Shown: piece by piece, positions 1,091-63,282 of the stretch | How positions within the stretch are numbered: position 1 is the stretch's first letter | How the letters are laid out: the number at the start of each line of letters is the position of its first letter | UHGV virus genome: UHGV-0060833 | Reading direction: 5' to 3' (one strand) | Length of the DNA: 64,000 nucleotides | Source: a virus | Notes under the pieces: generated by a model | What the model was told of the DNA's origin: nothing | The model's input: the letters and a program-made list of their open reading frames with translations, nothing else | Database searches by the model: none | Position numbers and translations under genes: made by a program

Positions 1091-1483
1091 TTATTCTACG
1101 CTTTCGATAAGAAGACCATGTTCATAACATTTAAGCTCATCGCCTTCGTACAGGAATTGGTATCCAATACCACCATTTTCATGGACATTAGGGAATAACT
1201 CATAACTCACTGAAGAGCAAATCACACCAATGCAGCGATCAACGCCTTCTCGTCCTTCAGTGCTGAAAAAATCCTCTTCGGTAAGAACATGAGTACATTG
1301 CTCATCAGCATAGGTCGGAAATACATGCTCGATGCAATCCGGGTGTTTTAAACCAAGCTGATCGGCAAGCTCGAAAGCATGACGGTATTGTTCAGATCCT
1401 GGCTTGCCAACAGTGATGTGCTCAATTTTGTAGATTGAAGTCGCTTTGTTGATAGTTTGCTTTACTGTTACTTTATCAGACAT
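1091..1483 (-). CDS. Hypothetical protein (position of P1 upfA)
   Basis: 130-aa ORF, first gene of a co-oriented minus-strand block next to oriR; no recognisable motif. Confidence 0.55.
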   Translation of the reverse strand: MSDKVTVKQTINKATSIYKIEHITVGKPGSEQYRHAFELADQLGLKHPDCIEHVFPTYADEQCTHVLTEEDFFSTEGREGVDRCIGVICSSVSYELFPNVHENGGIGYQFLYEGDELKCYEHGLLIESVE

Positions 1484-1494
1484 AAAAATCCCTT

Positions 1495-1746
1495 TTAGTT
1501 ACCTCTGATAGCGCGGTTGTAATCATTAACGTTGCGATTCTTCCTGTTAATCCCCATCAGCATCGTTTCTGTATCGAGGATATACGCTGGCAGATCATCA
1601 AAATATTCACTGCTAAACTCTGGCATCCTGCACATAAATGCACTTTTGGGGGCAGGGTGGTTAACCTTTGTCGGCGTCGGCGTTAAATTCGGTGATCGAC
1701 TGCCGGAGCAACCGCTGAGTGTCAGCAGGAATGCGCTGGCGAACAT
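1495..1746 (-). CDS. Outer-membrane spanin-like lipoprotein (Rz1-like)
   Basis: Signal peptide plus lipobox LTLSGC, proline-rich mature part (PNLTPTPTKVNHPAPK); overlaps 3' end of the upstream gene in a different frame, as Rz1 does. Start chosen at internal Met; could be 1806 or 1827. Confidence 0.55.
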   Translation of the reverse strand: MFASAFLLTLSGCSGSRSPNLTPTPTKVNHPAPKSAFMCRMPEFSSEYFDDLPAYILDTETMLMGINRKNRNVNDYNRAIRGN

Positions 1747-2083
1747 TACCCGCCGCAACCAGTTGTTTCTGAACTTCAGCTTTTCGTTCCATTTGCCTGT
1801 CAGCATATTTGGCTTGTTCTGATTCATTTTTCACTTCCTGGCTGTGAAAATGTTGCTCTGCTTTGTTCATCGTCTCAATGGTCTGGTTAAGATCCATTAT
1901 TGACTTATCACGTTCCTTAACAGCCTGATCAAGACTGCCAATTTTCTCCATGGCTTGCTTTAGCTGATGACGTTCCCATGCAAACCCAGCACCAACAAGT
2001 GTGCAAATCAGAACAAGAACACCAGTAGCAGCAAGTTTCTCCTTCAAAGACAAAGCTGTTTTTAACGTAGAAAAGAATGACAT
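1661..2083 (-). CDS. Inner-membrane spanin-like protein (Rz-like)
   Basis: AGGAGG 6 nt before ATG at 2083; N-terminal TM helix (ATGVLVLICTLVGAGFAW) followed by coiled-coil-like periplasmic part; lipoprotein gene overlaps out of frame. Confidence 0.6.
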   Translation of the reverse strand: MSFFSTLKTALSLKEKLAATGVLVLICTLVGAGFAWERHQLKQAMEKIGSLDQAVKERDKSIMDLNQTIETMNKAEQHFHSQEVKNESEQAKYADRQMERKAEVQKQLVAAGNVRQRIPADTQRLLRQSITEFNADADKG

Positions 2084-2122
2084 GTCTTCCTCCTGAAGAA
2101 AAATTATCAATGAAGTCCTTTG

Positions 2123-2968
2123 TTACTGTGCCGCTTTGTTTAATTCATCAAGAACAGAATCAGGAACCAAAGCGGCAACTGCGCTGGCTGTGCTGACCTT
2201 ATTTGCTGATGCTTCCGCAAGCGCGGTACCGATAGCATGGTTATAAGCAGTTATGGCTACGTTGGCGCTTTCATTCGCTCGTTCATACTGCTGTTGTAAC
2301 GCAGTTGTGGGCGCTGTTGTCTGGTTGAAAACAACCCCAAACTGTTCAGTTGCTACTTTCAGAGATTCAATTTGCTCTTCTGTTAGTGCTGGTGGGGGAG
2401 TGGCAGTGCCGCCGCCTGAACCAGAGCCTGACGAGCTTCCTGAGCCAGTGTTAAGGGTCTGGTTAATCTCCCCCATAGCAGCGACTAAACTTGATGTATT
2501 AAGCGCGTTAACAGCGTCCTCAAGCGATTTAGTAATATTCACATCACCAATGGCAATAGAGATCGGCAGTTCTGAAACTTCTCGCTCATTAGCACGGCAG
2601 TAAACATCCCAACCAATATCGAGTTGAAGCAGCATTGACAGATCTGCATAACCAGCCAACAGGTCCGCGTGCTTAGTTGCCAGTTCTCCAATGTTCGTTA
2701 AGCCAGTTGTGGTTGTTCTGATCGTTGAAACATAGCTGGTAATAGTGTCGGGATAGACAATTGTATCCAGAATTAATCCGGTCAATTCTTCTGCAAGCAG
2801 TTTTGCTGTGTTAGCACTGTTTCGTGCCGATGTTATGGCACCAGGTGTTTTCATCCCACCGGCGGCGGCCAATTTTTTATATGCGGATAACTGGTAGTCT
2901 TTTTCCAGCATGATATCTCCTAACTTACCTGAACCAGGCCGTCTCCGGACGCTACGGTAGATCCGCAT
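2123..2968 (-). CDS. Hypothetical Ser/Thr/Gly-rich protein
   Basis: 281-aa ORF with GSGSSSGSGSGGG linker; co-oriented with neighbours. Confidence 0.5.
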   Translation of the reverse strand: MRIYRSVRRRPGSGKLGDIMLEKDYQLSAYKKLAAAGGMKTPGAITSARNSANTAKLLAEELTGLILDTIVYPDTITSYVSTIRTTTTGLTNIGELATKHADLLAGYADLSMLLQLDIGWDVYCRANEREVSELPISIAIGDVNITKSLEDAVNALNTSSLVAAMGEINQTLNTGSGSSSGSGSGGGTATPPPALTEEQIESLKVATEQFGVVFNQTTAPTTALQQQYERANESANVAITAYNHAIGTALAEASANKVSTASAVAALVPDSVLDELNKAAQ

Positions 2969-3204
2969 GAAACAGGGTCACCAACGCATACGATCCCTTT
3001 ACCATTGACGGTAAACCATGCCCTGGTTGATATAGCTTGCCCACCGTGCGTACTGTTTCCATCGGTATGCTGTGCATATTGCTTACCATCAACTAACACT
3101 TCGACTCCGTTGACTTTAAGTAGTGGTTCACTCTCTACAGGAGGCCTGGATGGGAATCCTCCGTGCCCCGAACAAATGCTGTCTTTTGTTGCAATACTTG
3201 CCAC
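2920..3204 (-). CDS. PAAR-like small protein (putative spike-tip cap)
   Basis: 94 aa; VGDPVSCG and ICSGHGG motifs resemble PAAR-repeat Zn-binding proteins. True start may be internal. Confidence 0.5.
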   Translation of the reverse strand: MASIATKDSICSGHGGFPSRPPVESEPLLKVNGVEVLVDGKQYAQHTDGNSTHGGQAISTRAWFTVNGKGIVCVGDPVSCGSTVASGDGLVQVS

Positions 3205-3284
3205 GTCATCACCAATTATTTGCTCTGGTTTTCGTTATTTTAACTTAGGTTACTTGTGGTCTACATGGTGTTAACTATTAAATA

Positions 3285-3301
3285 ATTGCTCTAATAAATA
3301 T
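3285..3301 (+). promoter_or_regulatory. C1 repressor operator-like site
   Basis: ATTGCTCTAATAAATAT, 15/17 to ATTGCTCTAATAAATTT; sits ~70 bp upstream of the uhr-hrdC-dmt block. Confidence 0.7.
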
Positions 3302-3372
3302 TGTTTTTTATGTCGTGTTTTCGGTACCATTCAGCCATCGCCCTTCAATGGGTATTTGTTTGGAGTCGTCAG

Positions 3373-3657
3373 ATGCAGATGGAGCTAATAAGCCGCAAAG
3401 AGTTCGATAGCCGTGTAACCAGCGGTGAACTCGACAACTTGCAGGCTATCAAGGTGAAAGAAGGCTTTTGCCTCATTGGGAATCAGAGCGGAACAAATCG
3501 CGTTTTTATGCTTCGCCGTACGGATTTGAAGCCATTTGTCTGGAAGAACGAAATTGGTCCCAGCTCATACGCTCAAACTAGGGGGTGCCTCAACCTGGCC
3601 TTTTTCTACAAAAACGAGCTTTCTGTGGTTGATATTCAAGGGTTACAACATGTTTAA
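3373..3657 (+). CDS. Small protein upstream of the rdgC homolog (P1 uhr position)
   Basis: GGAG 7 nt before ATG at 3373; overlaps hrdC start by 8 nt. Confidence 0.45.
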
Positions 3658-4555
3658 GCACTGGAAAAACATTACTATTTTTAAACTTTCTCGTGAGGCG
3701 GATCTGACCGACTTGGAAGATAAAAAGAAAATGATCCTTTTCACGCCATGCGGTAGTCAGGATATGGCCAAGTTCGGTTTTGTATCTCCATTTGGTGATA
3801 ATTCCGAAGTTATCGCTATGCATGGAAATGGTTTTATCCTTGTTGAAGCAAAGCGCGAAACAAAAATTCTTCCCCCGCCGGTTATCCAGCGAGCTATTCA
3901 AGAAAAAATTGAAAAACTCGAGCAAGAACAAGCGCGTAAACTGAAGAAAACAGAGAAGGACTCCCTGAAAGACGAAGTTCTGCATTCTCTTCTGCCACGG
4001 GCTTTTTCAAAGTTCTCTGTTATCCAGGCGATCTACGACGGTTCAACTAAACGTATCTATATCAATGCCAGCGCGCGGCAGGCAGAGGATATGCTCGCGC
4101 TTATGCGTAAATCTCTGGGTTCTCTTCCTGTTGTTCCCCTAAGTGTTGAAAATCCCATTGAATTAACGCTGACCGACTGGGTACGTGATGGTAGTGCTCC
4201 ACAGGGATTTCAAATGGGGGATGCGGCAGAACTTAAGGCAGTGCTTGAGGATGGCGGTATTGCCCGAGTGAAAAAGCAGGACTTGGGAAGTGATGAAATA
4301 TCCACACACCTGGAAGCTGGCAAGCTCGTCACTAAGTTGGCACTCGACTGGCAGAACCGCATTAAATTTACACTGGACCATAACTTCAGCCTTACCAGCG
4401 TCAAATTTGCGGATGAATTGCTTGAGCAGAACGCTGATATTGATAGTGAAGATGTTGCGCAGCGACTGGACGCAGATTTCTTCCTGTTGACCAGTGAAAT
4501 TTCGTGCCTGGTTGATGCTCTGGTAAATGCCCTTGGTGGAGAGGCTAAGCAGTGA
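3650..4555 (+). CDS. hrdC: RdgC-like recombination-associated protein
   Basis: [14 protein letters not shown]..., [48 protein letters not shown] and later blocks match E. coli RdgC along the whole length. Confidence 0.9.
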
Positions 4556-6816
4556 AAGAGCTGTGCTATGGATCTGTTTGCAGTGGAATTGAAGCCGCGA
4601 GTATTGCCTGGGAACCGTTGGGTATGCGTCCGGCGTGGTTTGCTGAAATCGAGCCTTTTCCATCTGCCGTTCTTGCGCACCGCTGGCCCCATGTCGCCAA
4701 CCTTGGCGACATGACAAAACTTGCCAAAAAAGTCCTGGCTGGGGAAATCGAATCCCCTGATGTGCTCGTCGGGGGAACACCTTGTCAGGCATTCAGTATC
4801 GCTGGATTACGTGGTGGGCTTGATGATGAGCGTGGCGCGCTAACTTTAAAGTATGTGGAGCTTGCAAATGCAATTGACGACAAACGGGCTGAGTCATTTC
4901 TCAAACCAGCCGTTATCGTCTGGGAAAATGTCCCAGGAGTCTTGTCATCGGCAGATAACGCCTTCGGATGTTTCCTTGCCGGATTGGCTGGAGAAGATGC
5001 GCCATTTGAACCAGGTGATCGACCTGAATCAGGAAAAAGTAACGCGTTCTGGCGGTGGGATGGCAAAACCGGTTGCCATGCTCCAAAGTGGCCGCAGTGT
5101 GGTTGTATTTATGGACCGCAGCGAAAGGTGGCCTGGAGAATCCTTGATGCCCAATACTTCGGAGTGGCACAACGACGCCGACGCGTGTTTGTTGTCGCAA
5201 GTGCTCGAACAGACCTCGATCCCGCAACGGTACTTTTTGAGTTCGAAGGCGTGCGCCGGGATATTGCGCCGAGCCGAAAAAAGAAGGAAATCGCTTCCGC
5301 CATTATTGCAAATGGCGCTGCAATCAGTGGCGAAAGCCTAAATCCATGCCTACATGCTGACATGCCACCCGGTATGAAATCGACGAAAGCCGTAAACGCT
5401 TTCAGGATGGCAGCATTTGGGGAATATATTGACGATGAAACCGCATCGACAGTAAAGGCAAGAGATTTTAAAGATGCCACTGACCTTGCCGTTTTTAGCA
5501 GCACAGGAGCAGCTTTTTGGTCAGAAGGGCATGGTACATTGCGGGCACGTGAGCAAGAAAGCCATGAGCATCTTGTTACATTGGCTTTTCCTGAGCGTAT
5601 GAGCGGTACACAACATGCTGCAACTAAGAATACTTCACCATCTCTAATGGCTAAAAATCCAACAGCTGTTTGCTATGAAGTAAGAAACGCAGAAGTAGCT
5701 GTCCGCCGTCTTACCCCTGTCGAATGTGAAAGGCTGCAAGGTTTTCCTGATGGGCATACGTTGATCCCGACGGAAAAGCGTAAAAAAGTTAGTTCAGATG
5801 AACTGGCATATCTTCGCAATCACTATCCAGATTTAAGCGAAGAAGAGGCCGTGATGCTTGCAGCTGACGGACCGCGTTACAAAGCGATCGGCAATAGTAT
5901 GGCAATACCAGTAATGCGCTGGATTGGCGATCGGATTACTAAGGCCGTATGTCGGCAGAAAGAAGGAAGTGAAACAAAAGAGCGAAAAGTTAAACCAGCG
6001 GCAGAATTCGAACGGTCCATATTCAAATGGGCTGGTGGAAAATTTGGTGTTCTGGAACAAATCTTTCGCTATTTGCCAGAAGGGAAGCGCCTGATTGAAC
6101 CTTTCGTTGGTGGCGGAGCTGTCTTCATGAATGCCGGATACCAGGAAAATCTGCTAAATGATGTGAATGCTGACCTGATTAACTTTTACAAGACTCTGCA
6201 ACGCGAGGCGCATTCACTTATCACTCTGGCACATCGTTTTTTCCTGGACTACAACACCCAGGAGGGATACTTGGCAGTACGGAATGCGTTTAACAAACAA
6301 GTCTATGATGATTTACATCGCGCAGCGGCGTTTTTGTTCCTGAACCGACATTGTTTTAACGGATTGACGCGTTACAACCAGGCCGGTGAGTTCAATGTCG
6401 GTTATGGGAAGTATAAAACTCCGTATTTCCCATTACAGGAGATGGAAGCCTTCCTCGGTGCGGAAGGGCGGTCTGAGTTTGTATGCGGTGATTTTGCAGC
6501 GGTGATTGAAGCTGCCGGAGAAGGAGATGTCATCTTTTGCGATCCGCCGTATGAACCGCTCCCCAATACAGAGGGGTTCACGAACTATTCCGGTCATGAC
6601 TTTAAGTTTGAAGAGCAAAAACGCCTGGTGTCTCTGTTGACGGATGCTCATCGTCGAGGTGCAAAGGTTCTCATTACTAACAGTGGCGCGCCAAACATCA
6701 GAGAGCTTTATCATGACAGTGGCTTCAGAGTGGAACCTCTTTTTGCCAGACGTTCTGTGTCTTGTAAGGGGGACACTCGAGGTGTAGCTCATGACGTTTT
6801 GGGTATATTGCTCTAA
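4552..6816 (+). CDS. dmt: Bifunctional DNA methyltransferase: N-terminal C5-cytosine MTase fused to C-terminal Dam-like N6-adenine MTase
   Basis: N-terminal GGTPCQAFS (PCQ), VIVWENVPG (ENV), [10 protein letters not shown]; C-terminal [10 protein letters not shown] and CDPPYEP (DPPY). 754 aa; start overlaps hrdC stop. Confidence 0.8.
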
Positions 6817-6823
6817 TAAATTA
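6807..6823 (+). promoter_or_regulatory. C1 operator-like site overlapping dmt stop
   Basis: ATTGCTCTAATAAATTA, 16/17 to consensus. Confidence 0.7.
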
Positions 6824-6998
6824 ATTAGTGTAATATCGCCTCAATGAATCGTGATTTATAGAGCGATTTAGCTGTTAGCCGCGACAGGCGCGGCGGTAAG
6901 CATGGCTGGGCCTAGTCCTCCCAGACAAACCACCGAGTTGCCAGGTTGACCATGCGCCTAAGTGGCAACGCCGAAGTGCGTTACGAGCTTCCAGTTTG

Positions 6999-7024
6999 CC
7001 CATCTTCGGGTGGGCGTTTTTTTC
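6999..7024 (+). terminator. Rho-independent terminator
   Basis: GCCCATC-TTCG-GGTGGGC hairpin followed by GTTTTTTT. Confidence 0.6.
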
Positions 7025-7489
7025 AGGGTTTTCGTCATGGTTAGCGACTTTGCGGCGGTTTAGAAACTGACCATTAAAGTAAATGCAAACGATGATCTGA
7101 TGATGGTAGCGGCCTAAGAAACCAGATGCCACGGGGTATGAGTCGTCCCCCGTCAAAAAAATCGACCGCAGAGTGTCCCCGTCTGTGTATTAGGGAACGG
7201 GGAGGCACAACAGGTAAGGGCGCTGGTGTGATTAACCAGATGAACGAGAAGGGGCCATCTGTTGGTCAGCGTCCTTTCCTGTTGCGTTTTCTTTTCAGCG
7301 TAACAGCGGTGCTTAACAGCACTTTGGGTACAGTTCCACGAATTTACGGGTATATCCCGTCATGCTGAAGGCGCTAATCACGCTGGAAGCCAGGGTTGTG
7401 CATCCCCTGTTACCGAATTGCAGCCAGGGCGCGGTGCGCCGAAAAGCATACGGAGGTGGAAGCCCTCGCCGGAGACGTACCCGGCAAGT

Positions 7490-7565
7490 GATGGTGTAGC
7501 TCAGCGTTTAGAGCGGTTGACTATTAATCAACGGGTCGATGGTTCAAATCCATCCACCATCGCCA
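7490..7565 (+). tRNA. tRNA with anticodon loop CUAUUAA (anticodon AUU, nominally Asn)
   Basis: Folded by eye: acceptor GATGGTG/CACCATC, T-loop TTCAAAT, 5-bp anticodon stem GTTGA/TCAAC, encoded CCA. A at position 34 is atypical. Confidence 0.8.
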
Positions 7566-7567
7566 AT

Positions 7568-7643
7568 GCCGGTTTAGCTCAGTTGGTAGAGCGCCTGCCT
7601 TGTAAGCAGGATGTCAGCGGTTCGAGTCCGTTAATCGGCACCA
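7568..7643 (+). tRNA. tRNA-Thr (anticodon UGU)
   Basis: Acceptor GCCGGTT/AATCGGC with one G-U, D-loop AGTTGGTAG, anticodon loop CTTGTAA, T-loop TTCGAGT, encoded CCA; 2 nt after the preceding tRNA. Confidence 0.9.
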
Positions 7644-7651
7644 GCACAACA

Positions 7652-7725
7652 GGTAAGGGTATTTTGCGACGCCGGAGATCGCCGAGCTTGGCAGAGGGTT
7701 CGAATCCCTACGAAGTACCCTTACC
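7652..7725 (+). ncRNA. tRNA-like element: 10-bp acceptor-like stem, D-arm-like hairpin, canonical T-arm, no anticodon arm
   Basis: GGTAAGGGTA pairs TACCCTTACC; AGGG-TTCGAAT-CCCT T-arm; GCGA-CGCCGGAGA-TCGC D-like arm; only ~11 nt where the anticodon arm should be. Confidence 0.3.
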
Positions 7726-7894
7726 GTTGTGATGAAGTGCAGCTCTTTGAAGCAACCAGAAGATAAGCATCTGGCTTCACAACATAAACCGCAGGAACGA
7801 CCAATAAACGGTAGTCCGTATGGAGAACACCCCGTTGAGGAAGAGGCCTGGCCGGAACCGTAACCGGCACTACAACGTTGAGAACACTGGCGTA

Positions 7895-7976
7895 ACGGGG
7901 TCATATCCCAATCTACGAATAAATGTTGCGTTGCAGCGTGACAACCAGTGTTCTCAACATTGTGGTGAATGCACAG
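7895..7976 (+). repeat. Copy 1 of a repeated non-coding element
   Basis: Shares GTAACGGG-T-CATATCCCAATCTAC ... GTTGCG ... GTGAATGC with 8172-8234; embedded in a long inverted repeat (7872-7890 vs 7945-7963). Confidence 0.4.
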
Positions 7977-8171
7977 GCTGATGTGCCGCAACTACAGTAG
8001 TGCGCGCTTTGCGGGGCTTGCTACAACCCTGTGTCGGAGTTCAGCACCGACCATCACAGTTTGATTCTCTGGCATGAGCATAACGCTGAAATAAGTCCAG
8101 TCTGGTGCGGCCCGATCACCCGCCGTTAGCTCCACGAAACGGAGCACGTAACAGGTAAGAGCATTCTCCTG

Positions 8172-8234
8172 TAACGGGTTCATATCCCAATCTACAGGTC
8201 CACCAAGAATGCTCTTTCCGTTGCGGTGAATGCG
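8172..8234 (+). repeat. Copy 2 of the repeated non-coding element
   Basis: AACGGGTTCATATCCCAATCTAC ... GTTGCGGTGAATGCG; no credible ORF across it. Confidence 0.4.
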
Positions 8235-8374
8235 GCTAAGCGCACGCGGGGAAATGGTTATATCTGTCCATTATTTCTCCTTGTTTCCACGTCCACGGTG
8301 GATAACCAGCCAAAGGACACCGGGAGGCACCCGGCACCGCAACCTTATTTCCCAACCAGTAATGAGGTTAATAA

Positions 8375-8800
8375 ATGCTCGGCATTCTCAAAAAGAAATT
8401 CCGCAAAGCGGCTGGCGGAGTCAAGAAGATGGAAAACCGTGATGCGGTGGAAGCGACTGTCTGGGGCGCATATTCCATTGCATACTCTGACGGCACCTGC
8501 GATGCGAAAGAAATTGCAGTATTGGAAAAAACCATTGCAGCACTTCCTGCCTTTGCGCCGTTCTCCGGTGAAATTGCCCAGATGAGCGCCAATATTCGCG
8601 CTCAATATGAAGCCTCGCCGCGCCGAGCGAATGCCCAGGCTTTACGTGAACTGGCTGACGTGTCTGGAACTAATGATGCGGTAGATGTTCTGTGCCTATG
8701 CATTGATATTGCTGACCAGGATGGCATTGGGGCAGAAGATCAGGAGCAATTGAAGAAAATTGCCCAGGCTCTTCAATTGCCACTGGAACAGTATATCTGA
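8375..8800 (+). CDS. TerB-like domain protein (P1 tciA position)
   Basis: 141 aa with TerB-like pattern (AYSIAYSDGTCDAKEIAVLEKTIAAL ... LCLCIDIADQDGIGAEDQEQLKKIA). Confidence 0.6.
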   Translation: MLGILKKKFRKAAGGVKKMENRDAVEATVWGAYSIAYSDGTCDAKEIAVLEKTIAALPAFAPFSGEIAQMSANIRAQYEASPRRANAQALRELADVSGTNDAVDVLCLCIDIADQDGIGAEDQEQLKKIAQALQLPLEQYI

Positions 8801-8964
8801 TGGTTATAAAAGCACGTCTAATTCTGGCTTTGGTTTTTCTCGTGCTATCTGTGCTGGTGGATTTCACCAGCACAATCCTGTCGGTTTTATCCGACGGGGC
8901 GTTGGTAGCAGTAGCTGTAACATTGGTATGGCCGATATTTAAACCAGCCTCGAAGGATCAGTGA
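8800..8964 (+). CDS. Small hydrophobic membrane peptide (54 aa)
   Basis: ATG overlaps upstream stop (TGATG); MVIKARLILALVFLVLSVLVDFTSTILSVLSDGALVAVAVTLVWPIF...; below ORF-track size cutoff. Confidence 0.4.
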   Translation: MVIKARLILALVFLVLSVLVDFTSTILSVLSDGALVAVAVTLVWPIFKPASKDQ

Positions 8965-31365: not shown

Positions 31366-32559
31366 GTGACCTGGGACGATCACAAGAAGAATTTTGCTCG
31401 CCTGGCGCGAGATGGTGGTTACACCATCGCACAGTATGCCGCCGAGTTTAATCTTAACCCTAATACCGCACGTCGTTATCTCCGTGCCTTCAAAGAAGAC
31501 ACCAGGACTGCGGACAGCCGCAAGCCAAATAAGCCAGTCAGGAAGCCACTAAAAAGCATGATCATTGATCACTCTAATGATCAACATGCAGGTGATCATA
31601 TTGCGGCTGAAATAGCGGAAAAACAAAGAGTTAATGCTGTTGTCAGTGCCGCAGTCGAGAACGCTAAGCGCCAAAATAAGCGCATAAATGATCGTTCAGA
31701 TGATCATGACGTGATCACCCGTGCCCACCGGACCTTACGTGATCGCCTGGAACGCGACACCCTGGATGATGATGGTGAACGCTTTGAATTCGAAGCTGGC
31801 GATTACCTGATAGATAACGTTGAAGCGCGGAAGGCCGCGCGCGCTATGTTGCGTCGTTCCGGAGCTGATGTTCTGGAAACCACTCTTCTGGAAAAGTCTC
31901 TTTCTCATCTCCTTATGCTGGAGAACGCCCGGGATACGTGTATTCGCCTGGTGCAGGAAATGCGCGATCAGCAAAAAGACGATGATGAAGGTACTCCGCC
32001 TGAATACCGTATCGCGAGCATGCTAAACAGCTGTTCCGCGCAGATAAGCAGCCTGATCAACACCATTTACAGCATCCGGAATAACTATCGAAAAGAAAGC
32101 CGGGAGGCGGAAAAGCACGCTTTGTCTATGGGGCAAGCTGGCATTGTTAAGCTGGCATACGAACGAAAGCGTGAAAATAACTGGTCAGTGCTGGAAGCGG
32201 CTGAATTCATCGAGGCGCATGGAGGGAAAGTGCCGCCCCTGATGCTGGAGCAAATCAAAGCCGATCTGCGTGCTCCTAAGACAAATGCCGATGATGAGGA
32301 AAGGCAAACTGCCGTCGGTGGCCCTTCTCTTGAAGATCTGGACAAAGTTGCGCGAGAACGGGCCGCCAGCCGCCGCGCTGATGCCGCATTGTGGATTGAG
32401 CATCGTAGAGAAGAAATTGCCGATATCGTCGATACAGGTGGTTATGGTGATGTCGATGCGGAAGGCATATCAAACGAAGCATGGCTTGAACAGGAGCTGG
32501 ACGAAGACGAGGAGGAAGACGAAGAAGTTACCCGCAAACTGTACGGGGATGATGATTAA
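31366..32559 (+). CDS. pacA: Terminase small subunit PacA
   Basis: GTG start with AAGGAAG RBS; [39 protein letters not shown]...; contains the pac site; acidic C-terminus. Confidence 0.85.
31560..31716 (+). other. pac packaging site: 4 + 3 GATC-containing hexanucleotide elements flanking the cleavage region
   Basis: GATC at 31560, 31567, 31579, 31593 (left) and 31690, 31702, 31713 (right), each within TGATCA-like hexamers, inside pacA. Confidence 0.8.
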
Positions 32560-34043
32560 TGGCCAGAAGTTGCGTAACGGACCCACGTTGGCGCGAGCTG
32601 GTGGCGCTATATCGTTATGACTGGATTGCGGCCGCTGATGTGTTGTTTGGGAAGACACCAACCTGGCAGCAGGATGAGATCATTGAGTCCACGCAGCAGG
32701 ACGGCAGTTGGACAAGTGTGACCTCCGGCCATGGTACTGGTAAATCGGATATGACGAGTATCATTGCAATACTCTTCATCATGTTTTTCCCCGGCGCTCG
32801 CGTCATTCTGGTCGCTAACAAAAGACAGCAAGTCCTTGATGGTATTTTCAAATACATAAAGAGCAATTGGGCTACTGCTGTTAGCAGATTCCCGTGGTTG
32901 TCGAAGTATTTCATTCTTACAGAAACGTCTTTTTTTGAGGTGACTGGCAAGGGTGTTTGGACAATATTGATAAAGTCCTGTCGCCCCGGAAATGAGGAGG
33001 CGTTGGCTGGTGAACACGCCGATCATCTCTTGTATATCATCGACGAAGCGTCGGGTGTGAGTGATAAAGCATTCAGTGTGATAACAGGTGCGCTGACCGG
33101 TAAGGATAACCGTATTCTGCTTCTTTCCCAGCCTACGCGACCTTCAGGCTATTTCTACGATTCACACCACAGACTAGCTATTCGCCCGGGAAATCCTGAT
33201 GGATTGTTTACTGCGATAATACTGAATAGTGAAGAATCTCCGCTTGTAGATGCAAAATTTATACGAGCAAAACTTGCGGAGTATGGCGGTCGTGATAACC
33301 CCATGTACATGATCAAAGTACGTGGTGAATTTCCCAAATCTCAAGATGGCTTTCTTCTTGGTCGTGATGAGGTTGAGCGGGCGACGCGGCGAAAGGTCAA
33401 GATTGCCAAAGGATGGGGCTGGGTTGCATGTGTTGACGTTGCTGGTGGCACAGGACGAGATAAGTCCGTTATTAATATCATGATGGTGTCCGGCCAGCGA
33501 AATAAACGCCGTGTAATCAACTATCGTATGCTGGAATACACAGACGTTACAGAAACGCAGTTAGCCGCCAAGATTTTCGCAGAATGTAACCCAGAACGGT
33601 TCCCGAACATAACCATAGCTATTGATGGCGATGGCTTGGGGAAATCGACGGCTGATCTAATGTACGAACGCTATGGCATTACCGTCCAGCGTATCCGCTG
33701 GGGTAAAAAGATGCACAGCCGTGAAGATAAAAGCCTTTATTTCGATATGCGCGCTTTCGCGAATATTCAGGCGGCAGAAGCTGTAAAATCAGGGCGTATG
33801 CGGCTTGATAAGGGGGCTGCGACTATAGAGGAAGCATCAAAGATACCGGTAGGGATAAATTCCGCAGGTCAATGGAAGGTGATGTCAAAGGAAGATATGA
33901 AGAAAAAACTCAACCTGCACTCACCGGACCATTGGGATACATATTGTTTCGCTATGTTGGCGAACTATGTTCCCCAAGATGAAGTGCTTAGCGTCGAAGA
34001 CGAAGCGCAGGTTGATGAAGCTCTGGCATGGCTTAATGAATAA
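32559..34043 (+). CDS. pacB: Terminase large subunit PacB
   Basis: 494 aa; start overlaps pacA stop; position and size as P1 PacB. Confidence 0.8.
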
Positions 34044-62539: not shown

Positions 62540-62850
62540 ATGCTAATAGGCTATGTACGCGTATCAACAAATGAACAAAACACTGCTTTACAACGAAACG
62601 CTCTTGAAAGCGCAGGATGTGAGCTAATTTTTGAGGACAAGGCGAGTGGAAAAAAGGCTGAACGACCAGAGTGAAAAAGGCTTTTGATAGGTAAACTCTG
62701 GTCGTATGAAAGTTAAATTTGCGTGGGTGCAGCATGCGCTCACTCTTGAGGCATGAACGGTAATCATCTGATAACTTGTAGCTCGATTATCCGGACGCAC
62801 TGGAACCAGTCGATGCTTCCAGCGATCCAGATATTTCATTAAATGGACTA
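62540..62850 (+). pseudogene. cin: Decayed cin-type serine DNA invertase
   Basis: [44 protein letters not shown] then TGA; shifted frames still read TLVV.KLNLRGCSMRSLL (cf. TLVVWKLDRLGRSMKHLISL); 3' part missing, U gene ends at 62848. Confidence 0.8.
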
Positions 62851-63282
62851 CGCCTCCGGGAACGCTGGCCAATTGACATCTGGTGCAGTGCTGGTATCCG
62901 TTGCGGTCACCGCATCGATATAATCCAGCACAGCGTTAAGACGGGTGGTTTCAGCCTGCGTAAGATTCCGCCCGGCCTGTAATTTCAGTTGAATAAGACT
63001 AATGGAAGCCATTGCGGTATCAATCAGCGACTGTTTTTTCTGTTCAGCGTCAGCTACCAGTTCATCATGAGAACGTTCCGGAGTGGGTGGCGCAGTAAAT
63101 CCCCCGTCTGAATACCCCCAGCCGATTCCGGGCTGCTCACTGATATCAGAAATATTAATGAGCTGCTGATTATCCGGCACTGTGAATTCAGCCTCGCCAT
63201 CCCAGACAATGACATTCACAACCATCCCATTTTCAATAACTGCATATGACGTATTCATTATGCAAACTCCTCGATAATACAA
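62848..63282 (-). CDS. Tail fibre assembly chaperone (U/Tfa-like)
   Basis: 144 aa; overlaps the 3' end of the fibre gene, as in Mu/P1 S-U pairs. Confidence 0.7.
   Translation of the reverse strand: MYYRGVCIMNTSYAVIENGMVVNVIVWDGEAEFTVPDNQQLINISDISEQPGIGWGYSDGGFTAPPTPERSHDELVADAEQKKQSLIDTAMASISLIQLKLQAGRNLTQAETTRLNAVLDYIDAVTATDTSTAPDVNWPAFPEA

Follow-up and report, generated by a model that had tools for sequence, protein, structure and literature searches.

A tRNA gene with an AUU anticodon in the ban operon of a P1-like phage-plasmid

Three tRNA genes were called by ARAGORN within the 64,000-nt stretch of UHGV virus genome UHGV-0060833 analysed here (the window, in what follows), the first of which, at 7490–7565 on the plus strand, is a 76-nt tRNA-Asn gene with anticodon att. 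The same gene matches the Rfam tRNA model RF00005 end to end (7490–7562, model positions 1–71) with 69.6 bits, above the gathering threshold of 29 bits for membership in the family, and ATT is aligned to positions 34–36. An earlier note, made from the letters alone, had described an AUU anticodon in an otherwise regular cloverleaf, and both programs bear this out; the minimum-free-energy fold computed with ViennaRNA is likewise a cloverleaf with the anticodon loop CUAUUAA, and no other fold of the gene was found that places GUU at positions 34–36. The note was also right that the D-loop lacks its usual GG. This loop reads AGCGUUUA, with G18 kept and U at position 19, such that of the canonical tertiary core (G18–G19, with G19 pairing to C56) the gene retains G18 and C56 but not G19. 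Its 3′ end (...CACCAUC-G-CCA) provides the discriminator base G73 and an encoded CCA, and its anticodon is A34-U35-U36, where an AsnRS substrate would have G34-U35-U36.

On alignment, the window is a P1-like phage-plasmid and the odd tRNA is P1 trnA, tRNA-Asn(GUU), with two point mutations. The trnA region is 98.7–99% identical to phage P1 and many P1-like plasmids, and the gene itself is identical to P1 trnA (NC_005856 69348–69423) at 74 of 76 positions. "A mutation" of tRNA-Asn(GUU), one of the readings that the note had offered together with a comparison to P1 trnA, is what this alignment returns: the sole differences are G19U (7507, G>T on the plus strand), which turns the D-loop GG into GU, and G34A (7523, G>A on the plus strand), which turns the anticodon GUU into AUU, whereas both GG and GUU are found in P1 and in almost all P1-like elements. 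The Rfam score falls accordingly by 4.9 bits, from 74.5 bits for P1 trnA to 69.6 bits. In both elements the C1-controlled ban operon holds the gene, flanked by a dicF-like region and trnT, and the P1 order of dmt, Op72/Pban, dicF-like region, trnA, trnT, tciA-C, trnI and ban is the same in the window. High identity and the conserved position in the ban operon together identify the gene as the orthologue of P1 trnA.

The neighbouring features were located by mapping the P1 annotation onto the window. Upstream of the tRNA genes lies Op72ab (6807–6834, plus strand), a bivalent C1 operator overlapping the ban-operon promoters, followed between promoter and tRNAs by the dicF-like region (6931–7033, plus strand), in which a terminator scan marks a terminator-like hairpin at 6994–7016. 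With this hairpin downstream of the ban promoters and ahead of the tRNA genes, transcription of the tRNAs would depend on read-through or on a separate promoter. The T-run that follows it (hairpin and run, 6994–7023) is one T longer than in P1, through an insertion at 7017. Downstream of trnA, trnT (7568–7643, plus strand; called by ARAGORN) encodes a tRNA-Thr(UGU) identical to that of P1, and trnI (9075–9150, plus strand) encodes a CAU-anticodon tRNA, also identical to P1. The latter is labelled Met by ARAGORN and tRNA-Ile2 in the P1 and RefSeq annotations; as a tRNA-Ile2, and one that resembles ileX, it would have its C34 converted to lysidine.

The operator itself carries a T>A change at 6823, in the centre of Op72ab (ATTGCTCTAATAAATTT to ...ATTA). 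The A variant is present in 14 of 100 operator-containing locus sequences (12 from exact-protein look-ups and two stretches of NZ_AP027786.1), all of them from this lineage and including siblings with G34; the other 86 have T. The change could make C1 a less effective repressor of the tRNA-bearing operon.

Further along the operon, positions 8222–8341, upstream of the TerB-like tciA, give a sub-threshold Rfam match to the sRNA STnc100 (41.9 bits against a gathering threshold of 47, E = 4e-7). In three sibling loci (L126, L128 and L130) homology to the window ends at about 8265–8341 and a Band_7 (PF01145) gene takes the place of tciA-C, a break that looks, from the aligned sequences, like a cassette-swap boundary. 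The array holds additional tRNAs in related phages, a Tyr-GUA in Ro157c2YLVW (L123, 691–937) and a Ser-UGA in Cyrano (L124, 605–852), so the tRNA cluster of the P1 family is itself a variable cassette.

Conservation of the two altered positions

Comparison across sequence collections showed that both substitutions are derived and rare, that neither occurs without the other, and that they have been inherited in several independent assemblies. G34 and the D-loop GG are present in all 69 IMG/VR contigs with the trnA anticodon arm. Pattern searches for the G34 form matched 69 viral (IMG/VR), 44 metagenome and one genome-collection contigs, while the corresponding searches for non-G34 copies returned none in the viral, metagenome and GTDB genome collections, and no non-G19 copy was found in IMG/VR. 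A gene-conversion donor was dropped as a candidate on these same counts. Used as a query, the 76-nt gene was found identically in one of 402 E. coli records and one of 398 PLSDB plasmid records; among the matches listed from those two collections, the next-best all differed from the query at both bases and none at just one. Consistent with this, 134 locus sequences containing trnA divided into 128 with G/G and six with T/A (from four distinct records), with no single mutants.

GTT and GG are kept in the divergent relatives Ro157c2YLVW and Cyrano, with stem changes that are compensatory or wobble, and the minor trnA variants in IMG/VR are wobble-preserving or fall at variable loop positions. 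The constancy of G34 and G19 elsewhere, together with the compensatory stem changes, indicates that trnA is normally under purifying selection, exactly at the two sites that are altered here. E. coli tRNA-Asn(QUU), which likewise keeps GG and GTT, resembles the window gene in its loop context (CU-N-UUAA), G73 and overall cloverleaf; it differs in having G34 modified to queuosine, in its G18G19 and in its unrelated stems.

A young, clonal double-mutant allele

Four independent records carry the double mutant: NZ_AP027786.1, the Logan assembly of SRR31145580, GCA_032291105.1 and GCA_037105285.1. The first, the sole identical complete record, is plasmid p2017-03-3CC_3 of a human faecal E. coli isolate from Viet Nam; a source on isolates from its province, Thai Binh, describes hybrid MinION and short-read assembly but does not name strain 2017-03-3CC. 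The Logan assembly matches the window at every position over 8.3 kb (100% identity), both substitutions included, and GCA_032291105.1 (L135) carries both substitutions on a recombinant backbone that diverges downstream of ~10.6 kb. The members of the lineage other than NZ_AP027786.1 were found by exact-protein look-ups.

Close siblings with the ancestral bases were recovered alongside these records. Two G19/G34 siblings, GCA_025787015.2 and GCA_003784145.1 (L134 and L136), differ from the window over 5.4 kb at these two bases only, and two others, GCA_041008295.1 and GCA_012287125.1 (L126 and L130), over ~6.7 kb, again at these two bases only. Identity of the siblings at all but two bases makes the allele recent and, as far as these alignments reach, the double-mutant allele is young, clonal and always double.

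The window is not NZ_AP027786.1 itself but a sibling of it that is free of these IS elements. It is without the ISVsa5 copy in pacA and without an IS91 element, and the two are one SNP apart. In NZ_AP027786.1, ISVsa5 (IS10-like) lies inside pacA with a 9-bp duplication, CGCTAAGCG, of which the window has a single target copy (31662–31671); the IS91-family element adjoins a GTTC target there and is absent from the window (1120–1124). The window shows no mismatch to this record across 1–31671, and the sole SNP across the following 32.3 kb (31662–64000) is at 63116. Since the window has both tRNA changes without ISVsa5, the tRNA mutations predate the IS insertion. Moreover, pacA (31366–32559, 397 aa) and pacB (32559–34043) are uninterrupted in the window, and decay in a defective prophage under relaxed selection, which had been entertained as a cause, was ruled out by the intact pacA and pacB and the missing pacA IS. 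Near the end of the window, a tail-fibre assembly gene that is annotated as truncated in NZ_AP027786.1, apparently by a stop codon, is an open reading frame (62848–63282, minus strand), and the Cin recombinase is represented at 62540–62674 by a 44-aa N-terminal fragment only; judging by this remnant, the P1 tail-fibre (C-segment) inversion system appears to have been lost in this lineage.

Clustering of the two substitutions

The two substitutions lie 16 nt apart and are the sole changes in 5–7 kb relative to the siblings; two SNPs placed at random in 6.7 kb would come within 16 nt of each other with a probability of roughly 0.005. This clustering points to one complex mutational event or to selection, rather than to slow decay. 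Against a panel of IMG/VR and complete genomes, 16 kb of the window showed 25 private SNPs (11 synonymous, 9 non-synonymous), a background that was set aside as misleading: within 1552–11300 the private SNPs are common to the sibling contigs, and only the two tRNA changes are specific to the sub-lineage there. Inspection of the sequence by eye for a repeat that could have templated a quasi-palindrome or template-switch event found none that was convincing. G34A creates the palindrome ATTAAT, to which we attach no evident meaning.

Predicted consequences for editing, charging and decoding

Of the decoding outcomes proposed in the earlier note, two find no support. Conversion of A34 to inosine, which would have allowed reading of AAU, AAC and AAA, is not expected because the loop is without UACG: E. 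coli TadA edits only UACG in a stem-loop resembling that of tRNA-Arg2 (PMC13170351), and the 7-nt loop CUAUUAA presents UAUU instead. The window gene does share a genomically encoded A34 after U33 with the bacterial tRNA-Arg(ACG to ICG), but the latter reads U33-A34-C35-G36 where the former reads U-A-U-U. A suppressor-like tRNA is equally unsupported, in that AUU pairs with AAU, an Asn sense codon, and with no stop codon. A third proposal, AAU-specific decoding, is unlikely given the loss of the AsnRS identity base G34 and of the conserved G19.

These two bases have well-defined roles. G34 is the substrate for queuosine insertion, and the G19–C56 pair locks the elbow of the tRNA, joining the D- and T-loops; U19 is unable to form this pair. 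For aminoacylation, the Asn identity elements in E. coli are the three anticodon bases and G73 (Giegé and Eriani 2023, PMC9976931, citing Li, Pelka and Schulman 1993). A search of the literature on P1 tRNA function, Op72/ban regulation and P1 transcriptomics returned nothing usable.

Collectively, we favour the reading (probability of about 0.6, from sequence comparison and published identity rules) that the double-mutant trnA yields a poorly charged accessory tRNA, largely inert or strongly hypomorphic, that the element tolerates. One recent sub-lineage of a P1-like phage-plasmid gained G34A and G19U in its accessory trnA. Since its acceptor arm, T arm and encoded CCA are intact, the tRNA is probably still made from the C1-controlled ban operon and matured in the normal way. 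G34A would then remove one of the three anticodon bases by which AsnRS recognizes its substrate and, with it, the substrate for queuosine insertion; A34 would stay unconverted by TadA; and U19, with no conserved pair to C56, would weaken the lock between D- and T-loops. With an identity base and the elbow pair both lost, the product would most likely be poorly charged and largely inert. Such an allele would be tolerated because both Asn codons, AAU and AAC, are read by the host tRNA-Asn and because any contribution of the phage tRNA would be confined to lytic growth. Three observations sit less comfortably with a crippled tRNA: the allele is found in at least four records, one of them recombinant (L135), and so is not strongly counter-selected and could be useful; the tight clustering is improbable under independent neutral hits (~0.005); and the phage looks otherwise intact, such that the relaxed selection of a dead prophage offers no explanation.

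Alternative explanations

The clustering would be accommodated by a selected two-step knock-out, in which a harmful G34A arose first, through, for example, weak Asn charging of an A34 tRNA that misreads AAN codons, or through sequestration of AsnRS, and G19U was selected afterwards because it inactivated this tRNA at a second site. In favour of this order, each substitution strikes a functional nucleotide that is nearly invariant, nothing else separates the window from its siblings over 5–7 kb, and the lineage-wide T>A in Op72ab, if it weakens repression, would expose the tRNAs to selection in lysogens. However, no single-mutant intermediate was seen in 134 loci or among the best matches of ~400 records per collection, a single multi-nucleotide mutational event accounts for the clustering equally well, and both the toxicity of a tRNA-Asn(AUU) and the effect of the operator change are hypothetical. 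We therefore regard this sequence of events as unlikely.

In a second scenario, which we consider improbable, the allele is a functional recoded tRNA whose unmodified A34 is retained, which is charged by AsnRS and which serves as a Watson–Crick reader of AAU, aiding AAU-rich phage genes. AAU makes up 52.6% of Asn codons across the 82 annotated CDS of the near-identical plasmid, whereas E. coli prefers AAC among its Asn codons; the cloverleaf and G73 are intact; and the allele persists in several isolates. Set against this, G34 belongs to the Asn identity set (PMC9976931) and is present in every other P1-type trnA copy of the collections searched and in the divergent phage relatives. In addition, G19U harms the tertiary fold, a loss for which a gain-of-function allele would have no need, and the host Q34/G34 tRNA-Asn already reads AAU.

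It is highly improbable that the change serves instead to evade nucleases, with A34 protecting the tRNA from colicin E5 and other anticodon nucleases whose targets must read Y33-G34/Q34-U35, in keeping with the view that phage tRNAs take the place of host tRNAs cut by defence or competition systems. Colicin E5 absolutely requires YGU, and a change of G to A (ApUp) abolishes cleavage (PMC1635277), so the U33-A34-U35 of the window loop is predicted to be resistant; changes in the anticodon loop have, furthermore, been put forward as a means by which phage tRNAs escape tRNases (van den Berg et al. 2023, PMC10264068). The window gene resembles those tRNAs in being a phage tRNA altered in the anticodon loop, here at the very position that colicin E5 needs. 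It departs from them in that the published proposal is about loop positions other than those of the anticodon, whereas here the anticodon itself is changed, and with it the codon and the synthetase identity, and in that a structural base is also lost, which gives it the look of a damaged rather than a tuned tRNA. Evasion would help, moreover, only if the tRNA works in translation, which is doubtful with G34A and G19U combined, and nothing was found that ties the allele to a colicin or defence locus. Taken as one proposition, a circulating phage tRNA-Asn with unmodified A34 that is still charged and used, whether dedicated to decoding AAU or standing in, by virtue of its resistance, for tRNA-Asn cut by colicin E5-type nucleases, strikes us as a long shot on the present comparisons.

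Finally, a sequencing or assembly error in a single record, suggested by the presence of the allele in only one record among complete genomes and PLSDB plasmids, has practically no probability left and is excluded by the four independent records, since the same two bases recur in all of them (the Logan assembly, built from raw reads, and two NCBI drafts among them), one of the four has a different downstream backbone, and NZ_AP027786.1 is free of the frameshifted genes typical of poor assembly, its disrupted genes being two split by IS elements, one with a point-mutation stop and the truncated cin, with no others.

Significance for P1-family phage-plasmids

On the preferred reading of a crippled accessory tRNA, the locus is a mutated copy of the known P1 trnA in a common plasmid-prophage family. 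As it stands, the allele shows little beyond the dispensability of the P1 tRNA-Asn for plasmid persistence, and studies of mutation and selection may find a minor curiosity in two hits falling so close together on critical bases. To our knowledge, no functional tRNA-Asn(AUU) is known in bacteria or their phages. Should the allele be functional after all, an A34 tRNA in the split Asn/Lys codon box would bear on the avoidance of A34 in bacteria and on anticodon recognition by AsnRS, and it would bear also on the notion that phage tRNAs are shaped by tRNA-cleaving toxins.
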